The position numbers and the translations under genes are program-made. 64,000 nucleotides of DNA from Sedimentisphaerales bacterium (GTDB lineage Bacteria; Planctomycetota; Phycisphaerae; Sedimentisphaerales; SM23-30). Below are positions 46,959 through 64,000 of the stretch, piece after piece. The notes beneath the pieces were generated by a model that was not told the DNA's origin, made no database searches, and saw nothing but the letters and a program-made list of their open reading frames with translations. The DNA lies in NCBI GenBank assembly GCA_963663965.2, contig CAXXFK010000037.1, forward strand, positions 19,350 through 83,349, given 5' to 3'. How positions within the stretch are numbered: the stretch's first letter is position 1; every line of letters begins with the position of its first letter.

Positions 46959-47407
46959 AGGAAAACCCTTTCAAGGCAATGACTTGTGAAATAAGGGCAC
47001 CGGTTAAGCAAGTATTAATCATACCCTCACATCCACACCGCCTGTGGAATAGAAAATTAATCAACGATTTTTCCAAAACAAATCCTTCTCACTTGAGATT
47101 TTTTTAATTTCGCTGCCCCAACGGAAAAAGCGTTCAGAAAAATACGATTTGTTTATCATTTAAAACAGAAACGTTGTTTCAGAATAATTCTTCCATTCGG
47201 AAATATGCCTTTCGTTCAGATCCTATGCGACAAAACTAACGTTAACCTAATATAAATTAGATAGTTATCATAAAGCCTGCCTTAATGTACCCCAGAGTTC
47301 CGTCACATAAGAGCCTGAACCATACCAGCCGTACCCGATGAAACAGAGTTGACTTTCCGGACATAATGACAGAAAGTCTGGCCGGCAGATCATACATACA
47401 ATATGTT

Positions 47408-47437
47408 ATTATAGACCCGCAAATTTATGAAAATCAA
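47408..47437 (-). promoter_or_regulatory. Putative sigma70 promoter for the giant RTX gene
   Basis: Minus strand TTGATT-18 bp-TATAAT, just downstream of the GH29 terminator and about 450 bp before the start codon. Confidence 0.45.
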
Positions 47438-47524
47438 TTTATTGACTGATTCTAAGTCAAAACAATACCTTAACCAATATAGGAAACTGATCCTCGAAAA
47501 TATTGATCAAATCTATTTATTCAT

Positions 47525-47558
47525 AAAAAAGGCATCTCAAACTTCCATTTGAAATGCC
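47525..47558 (-). terminator. Rho-independent terminator ending the sugar-utilisation operon
   Basis: Minus strand GGCATTTCAAA-TGGAAG-TTTGAGATGCC-TTTTTT (one G:U pair), about 47 bp after the GH29 stop. Confidence 0.8.
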
Positions 47559-47604
47559 GTCTACACCAATCAGCTAATCTAACTATTACATACAAGCCGG
47601 TCAA

Positions 47605-49281
47605 TTACTTTTTATGGAACAGTTGAAACTCCCAGATAGTAGGTCCTTCCGTAGCCTGTAAAATATCCAGTCGGAAAATCCGTGCCCGAACAGGATCAAA
47701 TGTGATCGTCTTTTCTGAATCGACCTTGCCCCCTTTATAGGCAGTTTTCCATTCATTACCCGACTGATACTTGATTTCGAATTGGGTTATCCGGTTCCAG
47801 TCGTGCTCATCAATTCTTGCGGCATTGACCGTGGTATCCTGTCCCAGATCTACTTGCAGCCAGGCAGCATGGGTCCCGCCATCGGTGGCCCAGCGGGTTT
47901 CCGGATCGTCATCGAATGCTTTGGAGGCTTCATAGTTTTTTTGGTTTTGAAAGACATTAGAGGCTTTGGCCGGCTTCTCAAACGCTACTGAATCACTGGG
48001 GAGATTCATTCTAACTGGTTCGATATCGAACGCACGCCCGGCCACAGTCAGTTCCACGACCGAGGCGATTTCATTTCGCTCGGCGATTGGGATATCCAGT
48101 TCAATTCCTGCTTTGGTATTTTTAAAAGTCACGACTCCCCCGCCGCGTACTATCGCTTTTTGAATCTTTAAAGACTGTGTTGGAATAAGAAATGGACCGT
48201 CCTGGGGCCAGTTCATGATAAACAGGAACACTTTATTATCTTTGCAGGTAGAAGCGCCCCAGCGTCCCGGCTTGAGTGGGCCGCCCCGGGTGCCATAGAT
48301 GGTATCGCCATACTGCTGCATCCATTGTCCCATTTCCATCAGACGCTCAACCTGACGCGGTTCGATCCGGCCATCGGGCATCGGGCCAACATTAAACAGC
48401 AGGTTGCCATCACCGCCGGCGGTATAGATCAACGTTTGCAGACACTGCTTCAACGACTTCATGGTATCATCGGGCTTCCAGGCCCATTGCCGACAGATGG
48501 TCATGCAGGTTTCCCAGGGGCGTTCCCGGTTGAAGCCGCCGACTCGTTGTTCGGGGGTATCAAAATCGCCCGGCGCCCCGGTACGGTTGTTAATCACAAT
48601 ACTGGGCTGTAAAGCACGGGTAAAAGCAATCACACTCTCGCCGCGCTGCCGGTCGAATTCCTGGGGAACATCATACCACAGGGTTATCAGCGGGCCGTAA
48701 TTGACCAGCAGCTCTTTGACCTGGGCCTTGAGATACTCGGTATAGCGGTCCAGATTATAAGTATCCCGTTTGACCTGGCCGCCGGGACTGGTGCGGGGAA
48801 AATCCGGATGATGCCAGTCGCAAGTGGAATAATAGGTACCAAAGGCGATCCCCTGCCGCTTGCAGGCGTCGGATAACTCTTTAACGACATCGCGCCCTAA
48901 CGGCGAGTTCATCATATTGAAATCGGTCTGTTTGGTATCCCAGAGGCAAAAGCCGTCATGGTGCTTGGTCGTCAAAATAACATATTTCATGCCGGCCTGT
49001 TTGGCGACTTTTACCCAGTCGTCCGCATTGAAGTGTTCCGGGTCGAAACGCTTATACAATTGATCGTATTGTTCAACAGGAGTCTCGCGGCCGCGTGACC
49101 AGCCGATTTCATGACCGGTCAGACTGACCGGTCCCCAGTGTATGAACATGCCAAATCGCATATCCTGCCAGCGCTTCAGAGCTTCGGGATTGACCTGGGC
49201 GGCCGGCCTGTCAGCCGCCAGAGCCCATACACTAAAAACCGTTATCAGAAAATACCCTATAGTAAAATGCTTGGGAGCCAT
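47605..49281 (-). CDS. GH29 alpha-L-fucosidase with C-terminal F5/8 type C (CBM32-like) domain
   Basis: RFGMFIHWG, TKHHDGFCLW, LWYD, WETCMT and LLFNVGP motifs; AFDDDPETRW...WLQVDLG discoidin domain; signal peptide; AGGAG Shine-Dalgarno. Confidence 0.93.
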   Translation of the reverse strand: MAPKHFTIGYFLITVFSVWALAADRPAAQVNPEALKRWQDMRFGMFIHWGPVSLTGHEIGWSRGRETPVEQYDQLYKRFDPEHFNADDWVKVAKQAGMKYVILTTKHHDGFCLWDTKQTDFNMMNSPLGRDVVKELSDACKRQGIAFGTYYSTCDWHHPDFPRTSPGGQVKRDTYNLDRYTEYLKAQVKELLVNYGPLITLWYDVPQEFDRQRGESVIAFTRALQPSIVINNRTGAPGDFDTPEQRVGGFNRERPWETCMTICRQWAWKPDDTMKSLKQCLQTLIYTAGGDGNLLFNVGPMPDGRIEPRQVERLMEMGQWMQQYGDTIYGTRGGPLKPGRWGASTCKDNKVFLFIMNWPQDGPFLIPTQSLKIQKAIVRGGGVVTFKNTKAGIELDIPIAERNEIASVVELTVAGRAFDIEPVRMNLPSDSVAFEKPAKASNVFQNQKNYEASKAFDDDPETRWATDGGTHAAWLQVDLGQDTTVNAARIDEHDWNRITQFEIKYQSGNEWKTAYKGGKVDSEKTITFDPVRARIFRLDILQATEGPTIWEFQLFHKK

Positions 49282-49332
49282 ATGATTCTCCTGAATGACT
49301 GGCTAAAATTACCATCATAAATACAACAACTA

Positions 49333-51333
49333 TTACAATTCCTGGTCGCTGCTATAAGACAACCACTCTTTCGTCAAAAAATTAAAATCAGCATAGTCAA
49401 CCTGTCCATTTTTATCCAGATCCGCTCCTGTATTGGTGTCCAGCCAGCCTCCAACCAACACGGCCAGGTCGGCCGCGTCGGTTCGGCTATCATGATTCAG
49501 ATCAGCGATCAGAGGGAGTTCCAGGCGGATGGCATCGTACATGATATTGGCAAAGGTACTGCCCCGGACTTGTTTGAATGAAATGGTATTGATCCCCTGG
49601 CGCAAATAGGTGGTGTTAAATTTCAACCTCTTGAGTTCATAGGCGCCCTGTATACTATCCCGTACACAGGCGGATCCGGCATCCAGGCTAGTATCATACT
49701 CAATCCGGATCCCGTTAACCCTGATCTCCAAAGCACCCTGGCGCTGGGCGGCGATAGCCACGGTCAGCATGGCCTGACCAACCGGGATCGTCTCTATATC
49801 GAAATGCACAACCCAGACCGGTAAATGCCAGGATCCATTCTCACGCTGACAGGCCATCTGGGTATAGTTCCAATCGTCTCGTTCACAACTGCGGCCTATC
49901 CAGATATCCACATCCGCAGGAAAATCCGTGAGATAATTGTTCCACATCCCCCAGGAAGTTCCATCATGAAACCGATCGCCATATTTATATTCACCCGCTG
50001 TCCGGTCAAAGCGGCCAATCTGCCAGAGGCGGCGGCCGAATTTCTGCGGGCTCCAATTCAAAATACCCAGATCAGCAGTCTGACCGGCAGTAATAACAAC
50101 ATCATCCAGCCGATATTCTTCTGGAATACCATTTACGAAAGCATATAACGAATAGGTACCCGGCCTGACCTGTTCTATTTTAAAATTGCCCTGCTCATCG
50201 GCACGGGCATAAAATTGATAGCCTTTGCACTGCTTCTGCCAGTTGGGAATTTCCGGCAGATTCTCGGGGCTAGCCAGGATCACCCAGGCCCCAGTCGGAT
50301 TGGTTCCGTCGGTTAATTTTAATTTACCCACCAAATTGCCCCGATCCAGGGGATAATCCGGCCGGTCCAGCCACTGATAGGGCCATTTTTGCCTTTCAAG
50401 CGAAGCCGCCGCTTTAGCGTCATCCCATTGTTCTTCAGGGGTATCACCTTCATTGACATAAAGGAAGAACGGCCCATAGATCTTTGACCAGCGTTCGCCG
50501 GTTTGAAATTCCGCCTGGCCGCCGCCGTAATGGCTGCCCTGAAAATCGTTCAGGATCACCGGGGTCGTTGTGGTCTGATGGACCGTCAGTTCCTGATGGG
50601 TCGGCCCGCCATTGTAAAACTCCGAACTGGGAGTAATCATCCACATCCCGTAGCCATCTCCGCACCAGCCGTGAACATAGTGTTCACTGACATAATCGGC
50701 AAACAGATACTTATCATCGACGGTACCATCCGGCATTCGTGTTGCTTCAGAGGGGCTGAGAATCCCGCCATTGGCCCGGGCCAAAGCCAGTTCCTGGGGA
50801 GTAGGGGCGACTTTCTGGCGATTATCATCCACCACCATCCGATTGAATACTGCCGGACTGTTGCGCACGACACAGCGGGCCTGGTCCAGATCCCATTCAG
50901 CCGGACTACTGGTTGACAAAACCGCAAAGGCGTAGAATCCGCTAACGCCCCGGCGCAGGATATAATGCACTTCATAATCCAGCACACCTCCAAGCATCCC
51001 GATCGCCTGAAAGGCAATCTCGACCTGATCATCCGTATTCGTCACGACCGAGTAAGCCGCATTGGCAACCCCTTCATAAAGCCCGCCATTTCCATTGCAA
51101 TCCCAGTACCAGGCGTTTCCGATCAAATTGGAACTGGATCCTTTGTACAGAGTGGTCATGCGGGCATTGGATTTATTAATCATACCGGTTATCTGTCCGT
51201 TTGACAGGGTAACCGTGCTGTCAGTGTCCAACAGTGAAACTGGAGGATCAGACTGGGCAGAGAGAAGGGGACTAATGCCAAAAGTCCATAAGGCAGCCAG
51301 CCCAATGATTATGATTGTTGATTTGCGATTCAT
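49333..51333 (-). CDS. Polysaccharide lyase family 4 (rhamnogalacturonan endolyase) with C-terminal dockerin-like module
   Basis: VDDKY...VHGW...GGPTHQEL...SHYGG...KIYGPF; GYQFY...VRPGTYSL (fn3-like); LWQIGRFDR...MYDAIRLE (CBM-like). Probable start MNRKST at 51333 (the ORF track starts at 51369). Confidence 0.9.
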   Translation of the reverse strand: MNRKSTIIIIGLAALWTFGISPLLSAQSDPPVSLLDTDSTVTLSNGQITGMINKSNARMTTLYKGSSSNLIGNAWYWDCNGNGGLYEGVANAAYSVVTNTDDQVEIAFQAIGMLGGVLDYEVHYILRRGVSGFYAFAVLSTSSPAEWDLDQARCVVRNSPAVFNRMVVDDNRQKVAPTPQELALARANGGILSPSEATRMPDGTVDDKYLFADYVSEHYVHGWCGDGYGMWMITPSSEFYNGGPTHQELTVHQTTTTPVILNDFQGSHYGGGQAEFQTGERWSKIYGPFFLYVNEGDTPEEQWDDAKAAASLERQKWPYQWLDRPDYPLDRGNLVGKLKLTDGTNPTGAWVILASPENLPEIPNWQKQCKGYQFYARADEQGNFKIEQVRPGTYSLYAFVNGIPEEYRLDDVVITAGQTADLGILNWSPQKFGRRLWQIGRFDRTAGEYKYGDRFHDGTSWGMWNNYLTDFPADVDIWIGRSCERDDWNYTQMACQRENGSWHLPVWVVHFDIETIPVGQAMLTVAIAAQRQGALEIRVNGIRIEYDTSLDAGSACVRDSIQGAYELKRLKFNTTYLRQGINTISFKQVRGSTFANIMYDAIRLELPLIADLNHDSRTDAADLAVLVGGWLDTNTGADLDKNGQVDYADFNFLTKEWLSYSSDQEL

Positions 51334-51372
51334 AAAATCCCAGCAGGTTGACCAAACGGCCATTAACATTCT

Positions 51373-51804
51373 TCAATCAAAATGGAACACCTCTTCCATA
51401 TCGGCCCACCACTCGCCCTCCTTTCGATTCTCCAAAGGCTCCTGGCATGGATTGCAGTGCTTCCACCATTCCCGGGTGGTAGGATCAGCGGCCATGATCG
51501 CCATATCCGCGTCAAAATCATCACCGGTATATTCCAGATAACTGAATAAGTAAAGTCGTCCATCATCCAGTTCACGCAGATAGATCGAATAATTCCGGAT
51601 ATGACATTGTTTGATCATGGCCAGTACATCCGGCCAGACCGCGGCATGCAATTGTTTATATTCTTCCACCTTATCGGGCTTCAGGCCGATTACCCAGCCA
51701 AAACGCCGGCACTTTGCCTGGGATGGCCGGAACCCGGAACAACCGCTCAACAGGATTCCTGCTAATACAACCACAACGCACAGCCAGAGACGATTTGTTT
51801 TCAT
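51373..51804 (-). CDS. rhaM: L-rhamnose mutarotase family protein with lipoprotein signal peptide
   Basis: EEYKQLHAAVWP...IRNYSIY...LFSYLEY...WW...MEEVFHFD. N-terminal MKTNR-hydrophobic-LSGC lipobox. Probable start at 51804. Confidence 0.85.
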   Translation of the reverse strand: MKTNRLWLCVVVVLAGILLSGCSGFRPSQAKCRRFGWVIGLKPDKVEEYKQLHAAVWPDVLAMIKQCHIRNYSIYLRELDDGRLYLFSYLEYTGDDFDADMAIMAADPTTREWWKHCNPCQEPLENRKEGEWWADMEEVFHFD

Positions 51805-51838
51805 TTCTGATAATCCTACGTCAGAATTCATACCCATC

Positions 51839-52654
51839 TTAATATAAACTTCTAAAAGCATATCCCCGTTTCATGTATTGCAGATCCGTTCCATCTTCAC
51901 CTGAATATAATGTCTGGTAAAAAGATTGGCTAAGGGCCATATCAAGGGTGCTTTGTTCAACCCACTTATGCATCTCGGCGTGACCATCACAGAATCCCAG
52001 CGTACTTTGTTTGTTATGCCAGATCGCTATCGGATCGATCCATGAATTGGTGGTGTGTGAACCAAGCGGATAAACAACCCAGGAACCCATATTGTCGCCC
52101 CGTCCATCCATTTCTTCGATAAACGCATATTTTTCTGAAGGGGTTTTAATTTCGGACATTTTTGTTATCGGGACAATACCCCAGGCACCGGCAGTATCCA
52201 CACCAAATAAACCACCGGGAATGGAATAACTGCGATACCCCCCCAGAAGGGCAGGACTATCACTCGTAGCAGCGGATGGCTTTAAACTGCGTTTATCGCC
52301 GGGGCAATTATATACCTCAACGCTTTGGGTATATTTATAAAGCAATCCCCGTCGGATTGCGTCAAATTTGGGTTCTAAAGACGGCTGCCCGGCCGCGGCA
52401 ACTGAATTGCTGTAATATACCCACGGTTTAAATCCATTCCAGTCATCCGTATGGCCCATGATAATCTGGCCTTCGTTATCATCCTGATACATATTCCATG
52501 CCAGGGACAAACTCTTGCAATTGGCCAGGCAAACCGCGCCGGTCGCCTGCTGACGCGCGCTGTTTAAGGCCGGCATTAGGATCGCCACCAGCAGAGCAAT
52601 GATGGAGATTACGACCAGTAATTCGATCAACGTGAATCCTTTTTTTGTTCTCAT
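51839..52654 (-). CDS. Prepilin-type N-terminal cleavage/methylation protein with H-X9-DG motif (DUF1559-like)
   Basis: KKG|FTLIELLVVISIIALLVAILMPAL; CPGD; HNKQSTLGFCDGH (H-X9-DG); AGAAAGG upstream. Confidence 0.92.
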   Translation of the reverse strand: MRTKKGFTLIELLVVISIIALLVAILMPALNSARQQATGAVCLANCKSLSLAWNMYQDDNEGQIIMGHTDDWNGFKPWVYYSNSVAAAGQPSLEPKFDAIRRGLLYKYTQSVEVYNCPGDKRSLKPSAATSDSPALLGGYRSYSIPGGLFGVDTAGAWGIVPITKMSEIKTPSEKYAFIEEMDGRGDNMGSWVVYPLGSHTTNSWIDPIAIWHNKQSTLGFCDGHAEMHKWVEQSTLDMALSQSFYQTLYSGEDGTDLQYMKRGYAFRSLY

Positions 52655-52668
52655 GATTTAAACCTTTC

Positions 52669-53736
52669 TTAGGCTGTCCCACGATTAATCAGCTCATAAA
52701 CACCAGATTCCACAACCGTATCAAACATAGCCAGGATATTTTCCACCGGGGTTTCTTCCAGAATGGAATCATGGCTGGCGCCGGCAATATATCGGCCACC
52801 GGGCATCATGATATCCAACACCTCACGGGTCTTTTGCCGAACCTCTTCGGCTGAACCATCAATTAACACATGATGTGAATCTATCGCGCCATTAAAGACG
52901 ATCCGGTTACCAAACTGCTCTTTTAACGTTTGCAAATCCATTCCCTGACAACTGGGTTGAACCGCCTGCAGGGCGTCCAGTCCGGTTTCGAGCATCAATG
53001 GTATCAAGGGGGCAAAGCCGCCACAACAATGCAACTGCACTTTGAGGCCAAAGTCATGGCCTAATGCGACCAGGCGCTGCAAATGGGGCACAATAAATTC
53101 TCGAAACAGGTCCGGCCCCAATAATGGGCCGCATTGACTGCCGAAATCATTGCCAATAAAAAAAATATCAATATGCCGGGCAGCCGCGTCAAATATTCGC
53201 CGGCTCACTTCCCAATAATAATCCACCACCTTTTGCAGTGCGGCTTTCACTACCTCCGGTTCGGTATACATTCGGATAAAAAACGTTTCCATCCCAAAGA
53301 GTTCCATAACATCATGCCAGAACGGGGACCAGTCTCCTCCCAGAATCGCATACTTGCCGTCATAACTCCGGGCCGTCGCCTCAATAGCGCTCACATCCAT
53401 CCAGGCCGGATCAGGCCAGGGGTAATCCAGTACATCGCTAAGCCCGGCGCCGGCCAGGGGATGATTCAATGCCTGACCATAACCCAGACCATCCCGCTCA
53501 ATACCAAAAATAGTCCTAATTTTACCATGCTGTGGATTTCCCAGATCGGGCCCGTTATAAGCAGCATAGACCCGGCGAAAGTCGTCGCGCATACGAATCC
53601 GCAAATCTTCATCCTCCAGAATTCCGGTATATCTTTTCGCTTTGGCCCAGAATTCATCGGAAGCACCGCACCAGCACGGAACCCGGTCCGGCATTTCACC
53701 TGATAAAACAGCCAATACTCGTTCGCGCGAATTCAT
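52669..53736 (-). CDS. Uroporphyrinogen decarboxylase (UroD)/MtaA-CmuA-like family protein
   Basis: MNSRERVLAVL...PDRVP; NDFGSQ...LLGPDLFREFIVP; LHCCG; LKEQFG...FNGAID; GGRYI...TPVENILAM. Confidence 0.88.
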   Translation of the reverse strand: MNSRERVLAVLSGEMPDRVPCWCGASDEFWAKAKRYTGILEDEDLRIRMRDDFRRVYAAYNGPDLGNPQHGKIRTIFGIERDGLGYGQALNHPLAGAGLSDVLDYPWPDPAWMDVSAIEATARSYDGKYAILGGDWSPFWHDVMELFGMETFFIRMYTEPEVVKAALQKVVDYYWEVSRRIFDAAARHIDIFFIGNDFGSQCGPLLGPDLFREFIVPHLQRLVALGHDFGLKVQLHCCGGFAPLIPLMLETGLDALQAVQPSCQGMDLQTLKEQFGNRIVFNGAIDSHHVLIDGSAEEVRQKTREVLDIMMPGGRYIAGASHDSILEETPVENILAMFDTVVESGVYELINRGTA

Positions 53737-53835
53737 AACTTTTTGAAATTGATAGGTTTAACTCTGAAAATTCCTAAATTGGCTTCGTTTGGCCCAATTG
53801 CTTTATTTTACTATGACTCACCAGAACGAACCAGA

Positions 53836-53867
53836 CCATTTTGTTCGTATTAATCGCCATTTCGTCC
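53836..53867 (-). promoter_or_regulatory. Putative AraC/XylR-type operator (tandem direct repeat, 21-bp period)
   Basis: Minus strand GGACGAAATGG (53867-53857) and GAACAAAATGG (53846-53836), exactly 21 bp apart, between the regulator stop and the UroD-like start. Confidence 0.6.
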
Positions 53868-53903
53868 AGACTACATCGATAACGACTTCCTGATGCTATA
53901 ATT

Positions 53904-55106
53904 TTATTTTGCCCCGAATTGTTTGCGAAATGCCTGGGGGGATAGTCCTTTGATATCGCGAAAATAACGCGACAGATGGCTTTCGCTTTCAAAACCCAAT
54001 TTTAATGCAATTTGCTTGATCGGGGCCTGAGTCGTTATCAGGGCTCTGGCGATCGATTCCACCCGGGTTCGTTTAATTTCTTCATGAATCGACCGGCCCA
54101 GCACCTTACGAAACCGATCATAAAGCACCGTCCGGGATACCGCAATTCGCTCGACCACATCGTTTACCTGGATAGACTTATGAGCATTCTGGCGGATAAA
54201 ACGGATGGCCTGGGCGACCTCACGATCGTAAATTGCCTGAATTTCAGTCGATTGCCGTTCCATCACAACGGTTGGCTTGACATAAATCACATTGGTATCC
54301 AGAGCAAGCCCGGCCATTTGTCGATCCAACAGCTCAGCCATTTCGTATCCGGCGCGTTCAAAGTTAATACCGATACTGGAAAGCGGGGGATGACACATGT
54401 TACAAATCAACTCATCGTTATCGCATCCCAACACGCTGACTTCATCGGGCACCACAATATCCAGAATGCGGCAGGCCTCCAGCACGACCTCGGCCAGATC
54501 ATCGTTCCAGGCCCAGACCGCCAGGGGTCTGGGCAGATTCTGGAGTTGTTTGCCGATCCATTCGAGTTCATCCTGCCAGCTGATCATGTGGCCGGACTGG
54601 GTCTGATTCACCACGATAGGTTCTATCCCAGCCTGACGTAAACGCCGACAGAATCCCTGCTCACGCTGCTGCGACCAGTAAATCGGTCCATATCCAAAGA
54701 ACGCAATCTGTTTGAATCCCAGCTTAAGAAAGTATTCTGCTGCCATGATACCGGTCCGGCCGGGATCACTCATTACATTGACATATCCCGGCACTGTTTC
54801 TTCAGTAGGTATAATCACCGCGGGAAAATCGGGCGGTACAATATGTCGAACCGTCGATAAATCAGGCATCTCGGCCACCAGACCATCTATTTGAGAACTG
54901 GCAATCATCTGTTGAAGCGCCGATTGGTAATCCTGTTTCCAGAAACCGCCGCTACCTGATTCAGAAGGCACTTTATAAAAGGGTAACCGGCGTATGAAAA
55001 CCCAGGGACCGTAGAGGTTGGCATATTGGGTAATACCCCGCACAAAACCACGCGCGGCCTGTCGATCCAGATGCCCTGAAATCAAGATCCGTTTCGGTGA
55101 TGTCAT
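53904..55106 (-). CDS. XylR-type transcriptional regulator (LacI-type sugar-binding domain plus AraC HTH)
   Basis: GIMAAEYFL...WSQQREQGF...VPDEVSVLGCDND...LSSI...RQST; C-terminal AraC HTH (IALKLGFESESHLSRYFR...SPQAFR). Probable ATG at 55106. Confidence 0.92.
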   Translation of the reverse strand: MTSPKRILISGHLDRQAARGFVRGITQYANLYGPWVFIRRLPFYKVPSESGSGGFWKQDYQSALQQMIASSQIDGLVAEMPDLSTVRHIVPPDFPAVIIPTEETVPGYVNVMSDPGRTGIMAAEYFLKLGFKQIAFFGYGPIYWSQQREQGFCRRLRQAGIEPIVVNQTQSGHMISWQDELEWIGKQLQNLPRPLAVWAWNDDLAEVVLEACRILDIVVPDEVSVLGCDNDELICNMCHPPLSSIGINFERAGYEMAELLDRQMAGLALDTNVIYVKPTVVMERQSTEIQAIYDREVAQAIRFIRQNAHKSIQVNDVVERIAVSRTVLYDRFRKVLGRSIHEEIKRTRVESIARALITTQAPIKQIALKLGFESESHLSRYFRDIKGLSPQAFRKQFGAK

Positions 55107-55124
55107 AACGTAAAGAATCCCCAA

Positions 55125-58100
55125 TCAGTCAATGAGTGTCGCCGCCATCAATCCAATAACGACTTCATTTGACAAGGCTCGTATCGTCAATGCATTAAGC
55201 GCTTTTCCAGTATCCAGGGGGATTGCCAGTATTGTGGCTGACCCGCCCGGCACTTTGCCCCCCTTCCGCTTGAAGCTGATGGGGTCCAGAATCCGCAACC
55301 GGCCGGTTTTCAGATCCAGTCGCGGCGGAATGGGCTGGGGCCGGCGAAAGGCATAATCGTCGATATAAAAATCCTGATCGATCGGCCACCAATTGGTGGG
55401 ATGACGCAACGCCAGCCGTTGATAAGTATTGTCCGTATACATCACAATCATTTCGCCGTTATCGATATGGCTCTGCATGGAATTGGTGGAACCTGCCACC
55501 AAGACATACAGGCATCGCGCCCGGCCGGTCAAGGGAATGGTTGCTTCATCGGGATAATTGTCCCAGAGCGAGACATAGATGATATTATCCGCATCCGGCT
55601 CGCCGGGAGTACTTAATGCGATTCCGCCCGGCCCGGCAATCCGGCCGCCATGGTTACGGGCCTGCGCCCGCAATCCGGTATCATCCACGCCGAAGGTTTC
55701 TTTGAAATTGCACCAGGCCCCGATTCCCTGGCTGGGGATCGCCAGCGAACAGAACGGCGACCGGGGCGAGACATATTCGTTTTGGAAGATCCGGGTTACC
55801 TTGTCATTGAATTGGGATTTCAGATCGACCATGCGCGCCTTGGTCGAGGCGGCCGGTAGATGCCAGTTGATAATTTCGCCGGTAATGGTCAGACCCGGCC
55901 GAAGTGTTGCCTTGATTGGACAAACACCCGGCAGAATCCCTCTGGCCGGTAATACAATTTCATCAGATACCCACCCGCCATTGACAGTCACCGGCAACGT
56001 CCAGTTCTGACCGCTACTATTAAAGGTTACACTGCCCCGAAAATCCGACTGGGTATTATTTTTCAAACGGAATCTCAGACTCTGGTCATCCTGTTGGAGG
56101 CTGTCCACCAATTCATACTCGGGCCTGATCTTGACACTGACAGGCATGGTCCAGGTTAGATCGCCCTGTTTTACCCGGGCAAACAAAGTCCGGAACCCTT
56201 CCATGTCCTGAACCACACCTGTAAAACCTGACTCAGAGAGATTTAAAGAATCAAAGACTCCCTGAGGATCATCTACTGCGGTTACTGTCACCCTGTCCAA
56301 ATCAACGGTCTCTTGACGGCCTGGATTCATGATTGCTTTTATACGAGCATGCTTCAAAGGCTGCCCCCGCCACTGTATTACCACTTCATACCGCGGGGCC
56401 CGTGATTCAATGATTATCTTTGGCAATCCTATATTGTTCTGATCACATTGCCATTGGGCCGGCTGCCCATTCACCCGAACGGATGCTATTGTATCGCGAA
56501 AAGCGGGCAATGCCAACTGCAATGCCATTGGCCGCCCAAACGCCGGTTCAATCAGATAGCGTTCCTGTTCACCTTGCCGCTGATATGACAGGGTTATATC
56601 CGGGTGAATAATTTGAGCGGAATCCCAGTCCTGGGGCCAACCGGGCCGGATACGCAGTTCACCAGCCAACGCGTCCGGCATAATCCCGAATAATCCTTCC
56701 ATGAACGTGCGCGCCGTTACGCCTATTCCATCGGCAAAATCACGCTGCGATTCACCCCGCGCCATATCATAATAGGAACACATACCAACATTTCCCGGAC
56801 ACGCGCCCAGGTACATGCCATCCAGCAGACAGCCCTTGAACAATTGAAACGCGGTTTCATCCCGGCCGGATTGCCAGTAAGCCAGCGCGGTATGGGCCGA
56901 CTCCGCCAGAACAACGTTATTGATCGACCACGAATAGGGCATCCAGTTACTGGTTGAAATGGTATGATAACCGGCAGGCACTCCCGGCCCGACAATCGGA
57001 ATCGAAGGAATCATGGTATCGACATACCGACTCATCTGGTATAGCTGCCGCGCCGTTGCCGCCTGGCTGTCGGCGGTATGATAAAACGTCCAGACCGCCG
57101 GATAATCATGGGTTCGGCGTAATCCCAGCCAGTCTTTATATTCGGCGAACCAGCCCTTATCCGCCAGCCAGAGTTCACGCTGCATCGCCTGCCAGATCAA
57201 TTGTGCCTCTTTTTCATAGGCCGAGCCATCTTCACCCAGCAATCCCGCCAGGCGCGCCGCCATTTTGTTATGATAATAATTATACGCTGTGGTATGGGTC
57301 ACCCCCCCGCCGCTGTATTGCAGGTCATCGCTGGCCCAGATCGCCGCGTACGCTTCATAAAGCGGCAGTCCATCCGAACCATAAGGCCGCCGGAACAATC
57401 GGCGCTCCCAGGCCAGGTGCCGCTCGATCACTGGCCAGACACTCCGGGCAAAATCGAGATCACCCGTCCACAAGATATGTCGGAACAGAGCATCGATATA
57501 AACCAGGTTCATATCGTAATGCGATTTGGACATCGTACCATTACAATGTAAAGATGGCTCATTACGGGATAGATTAGCACTGGGATCCGCCGGCAGAATG
57601 GCCGGAGGTATTGACCCGGTGTCCTGTTGTCCGGCCCAGCAGGTCAGATGACGGCGCATGCGGTCATGCCAGCCGAGGGCATCAAAGGCATACGGACCGC
57701 GCCAGCCCAGTAGTTTACGCCGCCAGGCACAGGCGCCATGCATGACCGCGCCCTGGGCCTCATCCCAGATGGCGTCGGTCGCCACACACAGCGCCGCGGC
57801 TGCCGCGTTTAAATAGTCATCGGGCGTCTCGATACGAATCTGGGTTGCTATCTTTTTCCGTTGTGCTTGAACTTCAGAATACAATTGATACCAACCGGCT
57901 TCATCCAACTGTTGCGGCCAGGTGCGTTTTTCCTGACTTTGACTTTCTATAGTAAGAAACACCTGTTGACCACTGGAGAGTTTTGAGCGAATCAACGCCA
58001 CCGGCGATTCTCCAGTATAATTCGCGGACGTAATTAATTGATTCAGATTATCCCAGTTGTTGGCATCCCCAATGAGGCATTGACTGTCACCACTGACAGA

Positions 58101-58781
58101 ACCGGCCATGATGGATGACGGTCCGGTCAGCAAGAAACGAGCGCCTTCAAACTCGATTTGATTACCCTTACAATAATCCGGCTTGACGGCATAGAACTCA
58201 CTCAGCGGCATGCCTTCACAACCAAGATCGCCATCACGTTTACCTCGCTTACCACTGACACCGCCAAATACCCACCATATTTCCACCTGGGGTTGAGAGC
58301 CACTTAGATGGGCGTCGGCCAGTAATCCATCACGATCATACAAGCCGGTAAACCGTACTGACAACTTACTACCAGCCAACACCGGATCTTCGATAAGATA
58401 CAACATGGATCCCGGTTGATAACGCGCTTCAATCCTGGCGGCTTGATGGAGCCATAAGGCTTTATTTCCAATTCGAATTCCGACTCGAACAGCGCCTCTG
58501 CGTCCAGAGGAATAAAAGGCGCATTCCGGCCGGTCGCCTGCGTCGATGCGGAAAGCAGTATTGCCGCCATAGAGCGGCCGGTTAAACGCTTCATCGCCAT
58601 TAACAATCACAAAATCAGTGCCATCCGGTTGATAACGTAAGGGGCGTTCCTGGGAGCTGCTGAATTCCGGCCGCTCTGCCGCGATCCGTTCCGGGGCCAG
58701 GGTTTGCCCACCCGCCTGCCATGTGAATAATGATATTAAAATACCTGAGAGTCCGGCCATACGAACCATTAATGCCATCAT
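55125..58781 (-). CDS. DUF4450-containing (alpha/alpha)6-barrel glycosidase (GH139-like, tentative), secreted
   Basis: RPLRYQPDGTDFVIVNG...FNRPLYG...GDRP N-terminus recalled as DUF4450; HGACAWR...GWRG, HYDMNLVYID and IWASD six-hairpin region. Probable ATG at 58781 after AGGGCAGGA. The GH139 link is from recall only. Confidence 0.7.
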   Translation of the reverse strand: MMALMVRMAGLSGILISLFTWQAGGQTLAPERIAAERPEFSSSQERPLRYQPDGTDFVIVNGDEAFNRPLYGGNTAFRIDAGDRPECAFYSSGRRGAVRVGIRIGNKALWLHQAARIEARYQPGSMLYLIEDPVLAGSKLSVRFTGLYDRDGLLADAHLSGSQPQVEIWWVFGGVSGKRGKRDGDLGCEGMPLSEFYAVKPDYCKGNQIEFEGARFLLTGPSSIMAGSVSGDSQCLIGDANNWDNLNQLITSANYTGESPVALIRSKLSSGQQVFLTIESQSQEKRTWPQQLDEAGWYQLYSEVQAQRKKIATQIRIETPDDYLNAAAAALCVATDAIWDEAQGAVMHGACAWRRKLLGWRGPYAFDALGWHDRMRRHLTCWAGQQDTGSIPPAILPADPSANLSRNEPSLHCNGTMSKSHYDMNLVYIDALFRHILWTGDLDFARSVWPVIERHLAWERRLFRRPYGSDGLPLYEAYAAIWASDDLQYSGGGVTHTTAYNYYHNKMAARLAGLLGEDGSAYEKEAQLIWQAMQRELWLADKGWFAEYKDWLGLRRTHDYPAVWTFYHTADSQAATARQLYQMSRYVDTMIPSIPIVGPGVPAGYHTISTSNWMPYSWSINNVVLAESAHTALAYWQSGRDETAFQLFKGCLLDGMYLGACPGNVGMCSYYDMARGESQRDFADGIGVTARTFMEGLFGIMPDALAGELRIRPGWPQDWDSAQIIHPDITLSYQRQGEQERYLIEPAFGRPMALQLALPAFRDTIASVRVNGQPAQWQCDQNNIGLPKIIIESRAPRYEVVIQWRGQPLKHARIKAIMNPGRQETVDLDRVTVTAVDDPQGVFDSLNLSESGFTGVVQDMEGFRTLFARVKQGDLTWTMPVSVKIRPEYELVDSLQQDDQSLRFRLKNNTQSDFRGSVTFNSSGQNWTLPVTVNGGWVSDEIVLPARGILPGVCPIKATLRPGLTITGEIINWHLPAASTKARMVDLKSQFNDKVTRIFQNEYVSPRSPFCSLAIPSQGIGAWCNFKETFGVDDTGLRAQARNHGGRIAGPGGIALSTPGEPDADNIIYVSLWDNYPDEATIPLTGRARCLYVLVAGSTNSMQSHIDNGEMIVMYTDNTYQRLALRHPTNWWPIDQDFYIDDYAFRRPQPIPPRLDLKTGRLRILDPISFKRKGGKVPGGSATILAIPLDTGKALNALTIRALSNEVVIGLMAATLID

Positions 58782-59037
58782 TCCTGCCCTTTCTACGCTA
58801 TAAATCAAGTAACTGATTTTTCGTACGCAATCTGGTAATACCATGAGATGTCTCTTTTTGCAATCACCAGTTAATCATGATAGAGGATCTATGAAATTAT
58901 GCCTTGAATAACTATAGAATATCCTTTGCCGGTCAGCTTGACAAGCCCCATTCCCATCAGGCCGGCACTCATTATGGGCATACATACCGGTTATTATTCA
59001 AATATGAAACCCGGCCAGTAATTTCATTTTTAAGCCG

Positions 59038-61170
59038 TTAATCCCGCAGATAGTCCTCCGGTAAATAATGTGGCCCAACAAACTCCTCGATGAAGGTTCG
59101 TGACTGTTGATAAATCTCTTTCATCAACGATACCGGACTGCCCAGCGCCGGACGCGTGCGTAATTGGCCCAGGGTCGTATCATAACAGGAAAACTTCAGA
59201 TCAGGATCGTATTCGAACAGGCGTTGTCGATGTGCCATCACCTGGTCATAAGCCGCGACAATATACCCCATTTGTTCCGGATCGGTGGTCCGCATGGCGG
59301 CCAGCTGTCGGATATACCGGAAACGCCAGAGCGCTTCTTCCAGGTAACGCTTGATGATGGCAAATTCCTGCAACCAGCGAAAACGGGTGGCCAGTTCCTG
59401 ATATTGATTTTCTTTCAGATAAGGCCGGGCTTTTTCCAACTCGGTTAGCATCTGTCTGATCTGGTCCAGGCAGTCTTCTTTTTCATCGATGACACGCCGG
59501 ACATTGTCAAGGTTTGGTTCCAGATAGCGGGCATATTCCGGCAGAAAATGACGGTTGGTATACATCAGCAGGGTTTCACGCCGGGCTATATTGCTGACAA
59601 AATCGGAGTTCGTGCTGGAACCCATACCGAGAGTTGAGAAGGTGCGGTCTACGGCCGTTTCCGACAGGCGTAAGGCCCGCGCCAGATAGGGCGCGGCTTG
59701 CGGCCCGAAGGTTTCTTCGGTCCAATCCTGCCAGATTTTATCCAGATCGGCATTGACATCCCAGGAAAGTTCCCGCCAGGCCCGGGTATTGATACTATTA
59801 CAGATATCATCTAACAAATAATAATTACTCTGGCGTGTCCCGCCCAGAAACAGATTGACCCCGCCGGCCGGGCCCACCAGGTCGTGGCTCTTTTTCATCG
59901 TCCAGGCGGTATGTGTCACCGTCGCGGCCGGGAAATAGTATCGCCCGGTAGTCTGGCCGGTCATCTGATACTCGGCAATTTCGGTATGAGGTCCGGCCTG
60001 GCCCAGCAGAGTACTGAAGCGGGCGTTGGGCTGGCAGTCGGCATGATAGACCTTGGTTTGCAGGATAATATCCGCCGGCAGGTCATGGATCACCCGGGAC
60101 CAGAGTTCGGTCCCGCTCAGATCAAGATGGTCATAACCCGGCGCGTTCACCCATTGATCCCGCAGCCAGTGGGGTACTCCCGAGGACCAGGTCCGCACGA
60201 TCATTTTCTTTCCTAACGCACTGACGGTTTTATGATACGGCTTCACGCATTCATACAATTCATTGGGAAAGGTATTCAGCCCGTTCGCCCGACAGCGGTC
60301 GCACTGACAATACAGGCCGTAATTATCCCAGAACGTCACATAAAGCACATCGGCCCGGGTCTGTTGCAGGTACTCACGCAGGTAAGCGTCGATCACCCGC
60401 CAGGTCATCGGTTCGGAAGGACACAGCGTGCCCAGTTCCCAGGAATTACTTGCCGACCGGCCTTTGATCTGGGGATAAGCCTTAATCGCGGCCTCATAGA
60501 GCGAACCGGACCAGCGCTGCAAGTCGTTGCCATACAGAAAAGCGCTGTACACAATATCGGCATCGTGACAGGCCTGTCGAACCGGATTGTCTTGGGCCAG
60601 ATTGAAGTTGGCGGATCGCTCCAGACCACGCTGCTGATCTGGTGTTAACTGATCCCAGATCTCCGGCAGGGTATCTTTGAATGTTACGGTATAACGCGCT
60701 TTACGATCGATCAACAGGTTCAATCCCAACTCCGCGACATATTCGGCCATAGGCGCGCTGCCATGATACTCCACACTGCGGGTAATAAAATCAGGATGTC
60801 TCTCAAAGACGCCCTCCGTGCGGTTGCGCCATAAACGCAAATCCCCGGCGGCATAGAGCAAAGCGCGCGGCCTGTCGCCCCGGATCAATGTTCCGCCATC
60901 GGCACTGGTGACGGTATAGCCATCACTCTCTGAGGCAGTATCACCACAGGTCAGTATGATCCCGCCGGTCTGTGGCCGGGACAGGTCATCAACAGTTCGA
61001 ATCGTGCTGTCCGGCAATCCCAGTTTCTCCGCCAGGATCAACGCCGCCGAACGCAACGCCGGCGCCGCATTATCTGGAACGCCTATCCAGCGATATTCGA
61101 CAGCAGAAACAAAATTACATATACAAAGTGAGATTATTGAAACGAGTATTATCCGTTCGCTTGATGTCAT
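59038..61170 (-). CDS. Secreted putative uronidase-like glycosidase (GH67/GH115-type N-terminal domain plus TIM barrel)
   Basis: Signal peptide; DGYTV...IRGDRPRALLYAA resembles the GH20b/GH67 N-terminal domain; LCPS...CQCDRC; IVRTW...QTKVYH...EYQMTGQ resembles GH67-like barrels. Family not pinned down. Confidence 0.55.
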   Translation of the reverse strand: MTSSERIILVSIISLCICNFVSAVEYRWIGVPDNAAPALRSAALILAEKLGLPDSTIRTVDDLSRPQTGGIILTCGDTASESDGYTVTSADGGTLIRGDRPRALLYAAGDLRLWRNRTEGVFERHPDFITRSVEYHGSAPMAEYVAELGLNLLIDRKARYTVTFKDTLPEIWDQLTPDQQRGLERSANFNLAQDNPVRQACHDADIVYSAFLYGNDLQRWSGSLYEAAIKAYPQIKGRSASNSWELGTLCPSEPMTWRVIDAYLREYLQQTRADVLYVTFWDNYGLYCQCDRCRANGLNTFPNELYECVKPYHKTVSALGKKMIVRTWSSGVPHWLRDQWVNAPGYDHLDLSGTELWSRVIHDLPADIILQTKVYHADCQPNARFSTLLGQAGPHTEIAEYQMTGQTTGRYYFPAATVTHTAWTMKKSHDLVGPAGGVNLFLGGTRQSNYYLLDDICNSINTRAWRELSWDVNADLDKIWQDWTEETFGPQAAPYLARALRLSETAVDRTFSTLGMGSSTNSDFVSNIARRETLLMYTNRHFLPEYARYLEPNLDNVRRVIDEKEDCLDQIRQMLTELEKARPYLKENQYQELATRFRWLQEFAIIKRYLEEALWRFRYIRQLAAMRTTDPEQMGYIVAAYDQVMAHRQRLFEYDPDLKFSCYDTTLGQLRTRPALGSPVSLMKEIYQQSRTFIEEFVGPHYLPEDYLRD

Positions 61171-61187: not shown

Positions 61188-64000
61188 TCATTTTTCAATA
61201 ATTGAAAGCTCTGCTATCGAAGCAAATGGCTGATCCTGCATTTCTGAGAGAGCGACTAACCGTAAATATACGCATTTAACCGAAGCGGGAAACAGAATCG
61301 TCTGTAAGCCTTTGCCCCCCGTCAAGGTTCCCGAAGCCACCGGCCGCCATTGCTGACCGTCCATACTCACTTCCACACGATACTCCTTGATCCAGCCGTT
61401 AACACGGTCCTGACGCGGCAGATAGCGCAAGCCCGCCACCGAAACCGTCTGTTTGAATTCCATCATCAGCCAGTGCGGGTGTCCTGGTGACTGGTCACGC
61501 CATTGGGTATGCCAGATGGTGGCCGGATTGCCATCCAGCGCGTTGCTGGCCGGATCGGTCTGCGATTCGCTATCGGCGCTGACCCGCTGAACCAGGGCCG
61601 CAGTCGGATTGGAGGATGACTCCAAACCGGTAAGCCCTTCAAAAATTTCCTCAGTAGCGGTACGAACCGTTCCATAGGATCCGGAGCTATTGACGGTATC
61701 GGCCAGATCACCACCGGCATAGATCACCGCCAGTTCTGCCAGGGCCGCGGCAGTATCGCCGCCAAAACCGCTTAAAGCATCCAGTTTCAGATAACGCGCG
61801 GTGATGGTATTATCAAAATGGATGGTCTGCGGATCGAAGGTCGATTCCAGTTCACCGCGTCTGGCCTCACGCCACTCTTTTCCATCATCACTGACCGACA
61901 GAACATATTCACAAATATCACCCTCATGCTCCCGATTGTCCTGACGGTTCATCACCACCAGCCCATCCATCGCAACCGGAGCCGGGAACCCAACCTGGAT
62001 TTCATGAGGATAGGGCTTGCCCCGGCCGCGCCGGGCTGTCAGCCAGTATGAATTGGGATTGCCATCGATCAGGGCCTGGGCTGAGCGGCCGCCCTCGACC
62101 TCATCCACCTTGATTGCCGCGCCCAGTTTAGCCATGATCTGATTATCGAAACGCAACCGGTCGATCACATCAAAATCCACTTTAACCTCTGGATTGAACC
62201 GGTCAGAAGCCATGTAATTCAGCAGACTCTGACATAGCTGCCGCGCTACCGGCCGGTTCGATAAGTCGCTTTCCAGATCGGCCGCGCATACCAGCAGCCG
62301 GCCACGCCCCACCTGGCATTCAAAAACAATTCCCACTTTATAATTGCGGTTCCAGTCGTCGATCATCTGAACGATGGGGGTCAACTCCGCGGGCATATCC
62401 GCCAGATTGAGCGCCCGGCAATAGGGCCGGAACACATCGCCCCACTGCCAGTTATAATGAGATTCGGTCGGGAACGAAGCCAGCGCCGGGTGAGCCGGAT
62501 CGCAGACTATGCCCAGGAACCGCTCCCAACCCGGTCCCATCAACCGGTTCCAGAAGATGGGCCGCCGCCCCACCGGAGGGCAGTCCCAGCGCAGATCGCG
62601 ATACTGCGGGATAAACAGCACTTTACTACCCGCCTCTAATGCGTCGCGTGCTGACGGGAATGACCGGGCGATTACAATATCATCGGGCGCTTCGATGGGC
62701 CTGTCATCCGGATAAACCCAGAACAACCAGTCGTTTTCGACTGCCATCCCTTCCAGACCTACAACAATTTTATATTGACCCGGCGCGGTCAAGCCGGCCA
62801 GTTCAACACTAATCTGTCCCAGCGGGGTGCCGTTTTCCACCGGGATCGTCAGGGTATCGAACCGGCCTTCTCGAACCGTTCGGCCCCCATGATCGATAAT
62901 CTTCCACCAGGGTACCGCACCATCCAACGGTTTGCGGCCAAAATGTGCTATCTCCACCGGTACTTCCAGCCGTTCCGACTGGGTATAGACCTGGCGATAG
63001 AGCCGGGCCAGCGGTACAGTGACATTGCAGAACCGGGTAAACTCTTTGGGGGTAATATATCCCTTGGATTGCCAGAAGACATTCAAAACGCCCACCAGGG
63101 CCGTGCCCTGCCCCGGAAAATCATGCAGATCGAGTAATTGAAAACCACCCATCCCCGGCGTGCGCAACAGGGCTTCGATCTCTTCCTTATAACAGGCCAC
63201 CTGCCAGCGCCCGCTGGCCATCAGAAAATCCCTGGCCCGGTCGAGCAAGCCATGTTCCGCCAGCGAGTCCCGGAAGATTTCAAAATTTTTGGCTTTCAGC
63301 TTGCCGGTATATTTTACTATCTCAGAGAAATCCGGAAACGCGCACCACTGCCCGGTTTCATGCGAGATCACCGGGTAATTCACCCCGTCCAGCGACCGGC
63401 GGAAATCCCGGCCAAACCAACCGCTGTCGCCCCGGTACATATACGAACCAATCCGCATGGTATCGAGATAATCGATATCCGGCACCGGCCCGGGCCGCTC
63501 GCCAAAGAATCGGCCCGTCTGGCTGGCGTAGAGTCGGCGGTTGTCTTTCGCCTTCCACTCACGGCACCAGCGCAGCAAAGGCTCCTGCCAGGGACCGGCC
63601 GGCTCGTTGCCGGTCGAAAACAAGACAAATGAAGGGTGGTTACCGTAAGATTTGACTAACTGCTCGGTTTCACGCCCCAGCCATTCCACCAGATCGTTAT
63701 TACGCGAGGAATACTGCCCCCAGTTGGAACATTCCGGCTGCAGGTACATACCCATCTCATCAGCGGCGACAAAGGCTGCTTCCGGCGGACACCAGGAATG
63801 GAACCGCATGTGATTGATCCCGTAATCCTGGCAGACCTGAAACACCTTGCGCCAGGATTCGACATCCATCGGCGGATAACCGGTTAGCGGGAATTCGCAG
63901 CCTTCATGCGTTCCCCGGAAAAAAACGCGGTGGCCATTCAGATAAAACCGGGCATCCCGCGCCTCAATTTTTCGCAGGCCCACTGTTAATTGACTGGCAT
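61188..64000 (-). CDS. GH2 glycoside hydrolase with two C-terminal F5/8 type C domains (5' end outside the window)
   Basis: GLR...FYLNG...FFRG, NHMRFHSWCPP, NHPSFVLFSTGNE, ISHETGQW; two discoidin domains (IDGNPNSYW, LDGNPATIWH). The frame stays open to the window edge. Confidence 0.9.
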   Translation of the reverse strand, partial: ASQLTVGLRKIEARDARFYLNGHRVFFRGTHEGCEFPLTGYPPMDVESWRKVFQVCQDYGINHMRFHSWCPPEAAFVAADEMGMYLQPECSNWGQYSSRNNDLVEWLGRETEQLVKSYGNHPSFVLFSTGNEPAGPWQEPLLRWCREWKAKDNRRLYASQTGRFFGERPGPVPDIDYLDTMRIGSYMYRGDSGWFGRDFRRSLDGVNYPVISHETGQWCAFPDFSEIVKYTGKLKAKNFEIFRDSLAEHGLLDRARDFLMASGRWQVACYKEEIEALLRTPGMGGFQLLDLHDFPGQGTALVGVLNVFWQSKGYITPKEFTRFCNVTVPLARLYRQVYTQSERLEVPVEIAHFGRKPLDGAVPWWKIIDHGGRTVREGRFDTLTIPVENGTPLGQISVELAGLTAPGQYKIVVGLEGMAVENDWLFWVYPDDRPIEAPDDIVIARSFPSARDALEAGSKVLFIPQYRDLRWDCPPVGRRPIFWNRLMGPGWERFLGIVCDPAHPALASFPTESHYNWQWGDVFRPYCRALNLADMPAELTPIVQMIDDWNRNYKVGIVFECQVGRGRLLVCAADLESDLSNRPVARQLCQSLLNYMASDRFNPEVKVDFDVIDRLRFDNQIMAKLGAAIKVDEVEGGRSAQALIDGNPNSYWLTARRGRGKPYPHEIQVGFPAPVAMDGLVVMNRQDNREHEGDICEYVLSVSDDGKEWREARRGELESTFDPQTIHFDNTITARYLKLDALSGFGGDTAAALAELAVIYAGGDLADTVNSSGSYGTVRTATEEIFEGLTGLESSSNPTAALVQRVSADSESQTDPASNALDGNPATIWHTQWRDQSPGHPHWLMMEFKQTVSVAGLRYLPRQDRVNGWIKEYRVEVSMDGQQWRPVASGTLTGGKGLQTILFPASVKCVYLRLVALSEMQDQPFASIAELSIIEK

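Follow-up and report, generated by a model that had tools for sequence, protein, structure and literature searches.

MT-A, a UroD-superfamily protein of a Sedimentisphaerales bacterium, as a candidate methyltransferase in corrinoid-dependent demethylation of an O-methyl sugar

The UroD superfamily includes corrinoid-dependent O-, S- and halogen-demethylases (PMC10418091; PMC13222342). OdmB, VdmB of Acetobacterium dehalogenans, MtvB, MtoB and the dehalogenase CdmB belong to it (PMC13222342, PMC8630106, PMC10418091), as does MT-A, the protein considered in this study. MT-A is encoded in a stretch of 64,000 nucleotides from a Sedimentisphaerales genome (G000:C37:19350-83349, referred to as the window; C-numbers such as C6, C20 and C33 are contigs of this genome, L-numbers such as L001-L080 compared loci and P-numbers homologous proteins). 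Its likeness to the Odm, Vdm, Mtv and Mto systems lies in the shared superfamily and in the proposed reaction, R-O-CH3 + Co(I) giving methyl-Co(III). The components that an Odm-type system needs, a corrinoid protein, an activator and a methyltransferase II, were all present in the MT-A genome, the last as a match below the profile cut-off. We put at about 0.65 the probability that MT-A is the methyltransferase I of a corrinoid O-demethylase for an O-methyl-6-deoxyhexose, most likely methyl-fucose, which would by analogy resemble a three- or four-component corrinoid O-demethylase in its working. It would differ from the Odm type in attacking an alkyl (sugar) ether instead of an aryl ether; moreover, the partner genes are unlinked and apparently common to many paralogs, and the context is one of mutarotase, importer and fucosidases.

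MtaA/MtbA and CmuA (TIGR01463) have the same fold as MT-A and an H-x-C motif, but their third ligand is a Cys where MT-A has a His, and CmuA stands apart from MT-A in the tree. The type 1 mlp clusters, likewise from anaerobes and likewise with UroD-like genes side by side, consist of two or more Mlps co-transcribed with a corrinoid protein as well as a Ram protein, and these clusters with their corrinoid and Ram/RACE genes were proposed to act on methyl-sulfur or selenide compounds (PMC10418091). In contrast, linkage to corrinoid and Ram/RACE genes was found in 0/80 MT-A loci, where the context is sugar uptake, and an assignment of the MT-A locus to the type 1 mlp clusters was rejected because these genes are unlinked. 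The P450 demethylases of 6-O-methyl-D-galactose also remove a methyl ether from a polysaccharide-derived monosaccharide, but they depend on oxygen, yield formaldehyde and have a fold unrelated to that of MT-A (PMC6292453). The sugar O-demethylases found in print were such oxygen-requiring P450s, and no description of corrinoid-dependent sugar demethylation was met with in the literature searched, subscription papers and supplements being outside its scope. If the proposed function is correct, MT-A would be the oxygen-free counterpart of the P450 enzymes, the UroD-fold O-demethylases would extend from aryl to alkyl ethers, and the corrinoid route would explain the anaerobic use of methylated sugars, for which resistance in the gut and accumulation in the sea have been described (PMC6292453).

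Five kinds of observation underlie the proposed function, 1) the fold, 2) the sequence motifs, 3) the gene context, 4) the co-occurrence of genes among genomes and 5) the presence of the partner genes. The coordinates of all features are collected in Table 1. The original prediction, made from the DNA letters alone, had recognized a UroD-fold gene with an H-C-C-G motif and no heme genes nearby, and all three points held: the open reading frame matched Pfam URO-D far above its cut-off, the motif was found at the place given, and there was no heme gene among the 18 window proteins covered by the domain scan and no HemE above cut-off genome-wide. MT-A scored 28.5 bits with the HemE profile TIGR01464 (cut-off 302.95) and 74.5 bits with the MtaA/CmuA profile TIGR01463 (cut-off 235.4), both below cut-off, and was 19-20% identical to MtaA/CmuA types. 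Judged by its sequence, it is a member of a large His-x-Cys...His class that is neither HemE nor MtaA/CmuA. The best 120 homologues, 64-71% identical, form a tight family, and relatives are encoded on 411 stretches in GTDB genomes.

In the alignment, the distal motif G-A-S-H falls where CmuA and the two MtaA-like paralogs in the genome have P-G-C, so that His replaces Cys as the original prediction had noted; the replacement is not peculiar to MT-A. H236, C238, H322 and D197 were invariant in 120/120 close homologues, and among 110 distant full-length representatives the H-x-C motif with the His occurred in 67, a distal Cys in 0 and D197 in all 110. G-A-S-H was accordingly rejected as a special feature. 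The predicted structure (predicted local distance difference test, pLDDT, 94) superimposed on MtaA (4ay7) with Z 28.2 and a root-mean-square deviation (rmsd) of 3.0 over 302 aligned residues and, tied with it, on UroD (4exq) with Z 27.4 and rmsd 3.2 over 307. In the model, H236/C238 and H322 follow barrel strands, as expected of a putative metal site. The Arg-rich N-terminal substrate-binding motif RQAGR, present in 3/3 HemE references, was absent from MT-A, and a quick tree (38 rows), not reliable in its deep branching, separated the MT-A clade (100) from the HemE clade (98) and from CmuA. P0257, which shares 30% identity with MT-A along 392 residues, has the H-C-C-G, the Asp and the distal His of MT-A and is fused to B12-binding domains. 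Thirteen more distant homologues (P0243-P0255, 40-47%) were fused to a LacI-type regulator or sugar sensor domain, and P0242 to PF07596.

The gene context was compared across 80 orthologous MT-A loci with up to 10 kb on each side, many of them shorter. The most constant neighbour was RhaM2, a divergent RhaM-like mutarotase (44/80), followed by the UroD-like MT-B (27), an ABC sugar importer (26), MT-C (23), GH29 (15), MT-D (9), SSF (8), GH95-like genes (6), RhaT (4), GH139 (4), and a fucose isomerase-like gene and DUF4450 in one locus each. Any sugar importer was present in 36 loci, a fucose-type glycosidase or isomerase in 19 and any gene of this module in 62. RhaM2 scored 52.7 bits with TIGR02625 (cut-off 99.6) and forms a clade distinct from canonical RhaM (25% identity); three of the four RhaM genes in the genome fall into this clade, and in all three cases a UroD-superfamily gene and a GH29 gene lie close by. 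It occurs in a short cytoplasmic form (~107 aa) and in one with a lipoprotein-type signal. A strict lipobox pattern was present in 15/55 RhaM2 proteins including that of the window, and a periplasmic mutarotase would be unusual. In L099 (G255) the genes for RhaM2, RhaT, MT-B, MT-D, MT-A, a prepilin-type protein and GH139 lie in one run.

Co-occurrence was consistent with this context. In the bacterium's own order (120 genomes), GH139 was found in 13/19 genomes with MT-A versus 15/101 without; by class, the counts were 9/11 with both MT-A and MT-B, 4/8 with MT-A only, 8/14 with MT-B only and 7/87 with neither. RhaM2 was present in 29/33 genomes with MT-A or MT-B versus 12/87 without. In a wider set, 30/50 MT-A genomes had GH139, compared with 1/28 RACE-positive controls, which were the first 28 of 49 such genomes and were not matched for sugar use.

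Of the outcomes that would have refuted the original prediction, neither a grouping of MT-A with HemE nor the lack of a corrinoid partner came about. The genome has one stand-alone methyltransferase-type corrinoid protein on C33 and one RACE activator on C42, the latter adjoining a homocysteine methyltransferase/MTHFR gene. An 823-aa protein encoded on C20 is a fusion of MTHFR, MetV-like and methyl-tetrahydrofolate:corrinoid methyltransferase-like domains, the C-terminal one scoring 89 bits with PRK07535, below the cut-off of 259; such a fusion could channel methyl groups directly to methylene-tetrahydrofolate. Among MT-A genomes, taking those of the first 50 loci, a stand-alone corrinoid protein was present in 47/50 and RACE in 46/50, with RACE in 51/150 genomes of a phylum sample; a phylum-wide test of MT-A itself was uninformative, MT-A occurring in 2/150. 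The genome contains an Fhs gene and, at 94.6% completeness, gave no CdhC/ACS match, so that acetogenesis was not supported as the fate of the methyl group.

The chemical steps proposed here are assigned by analogy with the Odm/Mtv/Mto systems (PMC13222342, PMC8630106); the binding of a metal and the transfer of methyl, like the substrate, the direction and the choice of acceptor, are inferred. Fucosidase-type glycosidases would release the O-methyl-6-deoxyhexose. GH139 is inverting and releases the beta anomer (PMC12282258), a reason for a mutarotase in the system, and RhaM2 would supply the required anomer of the methyl sugar, which the importer would take up. A metal held by H236, C238 and H322, perhaps with D197, would activate the ether oxygen, and the methyl group would pass to Co(I) of the shared stand-alone corrinoid protein, kept reduced by the RACE activator. 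It may then be transferred to tetrahydrofolate by the C20 MTHFR-methyltransferase fusion or to homocysteine by the enzyme encoded next to the activator; since no ACS was found, its fate would be oxidation towards formate by way of Fhs or incorporation into methionine. The freed sugar would enter fucose catabolism and be fermented.

Several observations weigh against this function, 1) genes for the corrinoid protein, the activator and methyltransferase II were found in 0/80 MT-A loci, which counts against a classical operon, whereas most described systems have corrinoid and activator genes linked (PMC10418091), 2) the co-occurrence with RACE and corrinoid proteins may only mark anaerobes rich in such enzymes, of which this genome has 16 paralogs, 3) the genomes are related, so the co-occurrence contrasts given above overstate significance, 4) the fold comparison fails to separate MtaA from UroD, 5) the B12-fused P0257 is a distant relative, nearer to the C18 paralog (39%), 6) some related methyltransferases lack zinc (PMC13222342), 7) 18/80 loci, many on short contigs, lack any module gene and 61/80 lack a fucose-type gene, 8) GH139 stands beside MT-B more often than beside MT-A (L099, L101-L104 and C6), 9) GH29 and GH95 were reported to be unable to cleave 2-O-methyl-fucose (PMC12282258) and 10) one GH139 member tested was inactive (PMC12282258). 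Because GH139 is nearer to MT-B and GH29/GH95 reportedly do not cleave 2-O-methyl-fucose, this sugar is a rather doubtful substrate for MT-A and is more in keeping with MT-B, the C6 paralog; a different O-methyl fucose or rhamnose ranks somewhat higher.

We lean slightly towards an undescribed modular O-methyl-sugar system spread over anaerobic glycan degraders of the Planctomycetota, Verrucomicrobiota/Lentisphaerota, Acidobacteriota, Chloroflexota, Bacteroidota and Spirochaetota, made up of MT-A to MT-D, which perhaps differ in the sugar or methyl position that each serves, a dedicated mutarotase with a cytoplasmic and a lipoprotein form, importers, GH139/GH29 and one shared corrinoid protein. 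If so, many proteins misnamed uroporphyrinogen decarboxylase would gain a function. A single genome provides a testable set of MT-A, MT-B, corrinoid protein, activator, acceptor, mutarotase and true GH139.

The alternative that survives best, itself unlikely, is that MT-A needs no corrinoid and has put the UroD barrel to another use, as a metal-dependent isomerase, dehydratase, decarboxylase or hydrolase in a deoxy-sugar pathway. B12 genes are absent from 80/80 loci, the several unrelated UroD-like genes that follow one another could encode consecutive reactions, and UroD, itself a decarboxylase, ties with MtaA in the fold comparison. However, the same motif class has a B12-fused member in P0257, nearly all carriers have the corrinoid protein and RACE, and MT-A co-occurs with GH139, a methyl-fucosidase family.

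Aryl ethers are the chemically easier methyl donors, which counts for a slightly less probable alternative, that MT-A, as a corrinoid methyltransferase I, takes its methyl group from a non-sugar compound freed in glycan breakdown, such as methanol from pectin esters, methoxylated aglycones or O-methyl-cyclitols. GH78/GH106 rhamnosidases occur near MT-A in L063, L109 and L111, and the characterized O-demethylases of this fold that were consulted all act on aryl methyl ethers (PMC13222342, PMC8630106). Against a non-sugar donor, the genes found constantly beside MT-A are those for sugar importers and for a mutarotase that forms a dedicated clade, and no pectin methylesterase or aromatic-type gene was prominent among the annotated neighbours (81/202 unlabelled near neighbours were scanned).

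The original prediction proposed that the DUF4450 protein, tentatively equated with GH139, frees 2-O-methyl-fucose or -xylose from rhamnogalacturonan II (RG-II), and that MT-A, encoded beside it, demethylates the sugar. Of this scheme, a corrinoid methyltransferase acting on an O-methyl sugar is retained, on other evidence; the part given to DUF4450 is not, and the scheme as a whole is very improbable. The two genes are on the same strand, one gene apart, the fold of the DUF4450 protein is that of a glycosidase, its gene neighbours are of pectin type, and an RG-II marker, a GH140-type apiosidase, is encoded in the genome. However, the genes are not adjacent, being separated by a XylR-type regulator and a 167-base gap. 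The GH139 structures, deposited as 9HYQ and 9HMB (PMC12282258), carry the DUF5703 label, and the DUF4450 protein matched neither at E<=1 or E<=10. As controls, the DUF5703_N product of C6 matched 9HYQ at 1e-80 and a second GH139, encoded near an MT-A orthologue, matched both structures (6e-118). A profile of 118 DUF4450 proteins gave a probability of 0.3% against the C6 GH139, and the DUF5703_N domain was absent from the DUF4450 protein, its matches in the genome being confined to C6 and C15. The identity of DUF4450 with GH139 was thus rejected for lack of sequence or profile similarity. Linkage was equally poor: the lone DUF4450 among 80 MT-A loci was 27% identical, and in 80 metagenomic DUF4450 loci, where GH28 (17), a pectate-lyase/esterase cluster (12), GH2 and GH106 recurred, the MT-A orthologue, GH139 and RhaM2 type were found in 0 and a distant UroD-like gene in one. 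The query matched 5/50 MT-A genomes and 0/28 RACE-positive controls, and on these counts DUF4450 was rejected as the partner of MT-A.

The model of DUF4450 residues 41-850 (pLDDT 87) has a beta-sandwich, an (alpha/alpha)6 toroid and a C-terminal beta domain. Identity to the types that it resembles (GH78, GH94, GH63, GH116) is ~10-16% with no family singled out, and 9HYQ/9HMB were not among the matches listed in two fold searches; with GH139 it shares only the general beta-sandwich/(alpha/alpha)6 architecture, which is common to many families. Homologues number >4000, the atlas clusters for the gene contained DUF4450 only, and DUF4450 was unnamed in the literature searched. The protein is best read as a candidate for an unclassified pectin glycosidase family, upstream of MT-A by chance. 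DUF4450 is fused to GH78 in two cases. The pairing that had been imagined, a true GH139 beside a UroD-like gene, is present on C6 with MT-B, in the order AraC, RhaM2, RhaT, MT-B, GH139, GH29, GH106, GH127. The C6 and C15 genes belong with BT0984, the GH139 2-O-methyl-alpha-L-fucosidase (PMC12282258; 9HYQ). By eye and with a one-residue offset, the C6 protein keeps the equivalents of W403, Q411, N412, E561, E641, W683, D723 and N729 but lacks those of W490 and N639, with E472 unaligned; 12 aligned GH139 proteins keep those of Q411, N412, E561, W683 and D723.

Just as improbable is that MT-A acts in reverse or as a methyltransferase II, passing the corrinoid methyl group to a thiol or sugar. The nearest solved structure and the best hidden Markov model scores are of MtaA types, but MT-A lacks the third Cys, which two paralogs on C20 and C7 with higher MtaA/CmuA scores retain, and the gene context is catabolic. 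That MT-A is a true uroporphyrinogen decarboxylase, as the database names of its homologues say, is next to impossible: His322 aligns with a HemE His and no HemE above cut-off was found in the genome, but MT-A itself falls far short of the HemE cut-off, lacks the Arg-rich motif of the three HemE references and lies in a separate clade.

Table 1. Coordinates of features in the window and of related genes elsewhere in the genome
Feature	Position	Strand	Remarks
GH2	61188-63998	minus	like BT4151
GH67/GH20-like protein	59038-61170	minus	710 aa; weak DUF4838/GH67-like matches
DUF4450 gene	55125-58844	minus	
XylR-type sugar-sensing regulator	53904-55124	minus	LacI-type sensor + AraC helix-turn-helix; between DUF4450 and MT-A
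MT-A	52669-53736	minus	UroD-superfamily TIM-barrel, 355 aa; Pfam URO-D 111 bits, cut-off 23.9
N196-D197 of MT-A	53146-53151	minus	D197 candidate further ligand or catalytic acid
H-C-C-G of MT-A (H236-G239)	53020-53031	minus	end of barrel strand (232-236 in model); H236, C238 putative metal ligands
G-A-S-H of MT-A (G319-H322)	52771-52782	minus	H322 at third Cys ligand position of MtaA/CmuA types
Prepilin-type protein	51839-52654	minus	N-terminal methylation motif
RhaM2	51373-51861	minus	divergent RhaM-like mutarotase; Pfam rhaM 113 bits; lipoprotein-type N-terminus, probable start 51804
PL4-type rhamnogalacturonan lyase	49333-51369	minus	domain match
GH29 alpha-L-fucosidase family protein	47605-49281	minus	domain match
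Terminator-like hairpin	47558-47531		past GH29 gene
MT-B	L083:7351-8546 = G000:C6:141350-142545		C6 UroD-like paralog
MT-D	L090:7068-8363 = G000:C28:255067-256362		431-aa family, very distant UroD-superfamily member, no Pfam match
Corrinoid protein	C33:79075-79701		
RACE activator	C42:85639-87429		
MTHFR-methyltransferase fusion	C20:149075-151546 (L086:4076-6547)		

The genes from MT-A through GH29 are closely packed and, because of this packing and the terminator-like hairpin at the end, plausibly form one transcript with GH29 as the probable last gene. A promoter scan of 46900-59200 was uninformative (23 sites versus 17.0 +/- 4.5 in shuffles). Similar XylR-type regulators occur near MT-A in L100, L107 and L113, and in 2/80 of the wider loci; a prepilin-type gene lies near MT-A in L099, L100, L107, L110 and L113. 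The PL4-type lyase was found in 0/80 MT-A loci and is not a conserved partner. The pectin cluster described in the original prediction is borne out by the GH29, PL4-type, RhaM-like and GH2 neighbours, but the named window enzymes point to RG-I or general pectin rather than RG-II. The GH67/GH20-like protein, which had no solved relative by sequence and no consistent family in atlas searches, is a further glycosidase candidate. At 26171-46958 of the window, a 5941-aa open reading frame is followed by an overlapping one of 1012 aa with RTX calcium-binding repeats, possibly a single giant surface protein broken by a frameshift.

Many of the 16 URO-D-type genes in the genome adjoin sugar-type genes at first look. 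MT-B is split near codon 50 by a one-base frameshift, probably an assembly error; at that place the assembly and a contig from run X1 (depth 2.9) disagree by one base, and run X2 has no coverage. MT-D on C28 adjoins SSF, RhaM2 and GH29. A further UroD-like gene (G000:C18:126237-127261) appears in two frames, and at L089:1971-4520 (G000:C7) an MtaA/CmuA-like protein is fused to thioredoxin-like domains and adjoins a CobW-type gene. In the gut bacterium Subdoligranulum variabile (L199, OY725838.1), four URO-D genes, an MT-D homologue and a RACE gene lie within 28 kb, together with a ROK kinase, GH78, GH2 and a GH88-type gene, a physical link of such UroD-like genes to an activator. Elsewhere in the MT-A genome, a 1057-aa open reading frame (G000:C33:84129-87302) has an N-terminus that, by a motif in it, looks like that of a small Cas9.

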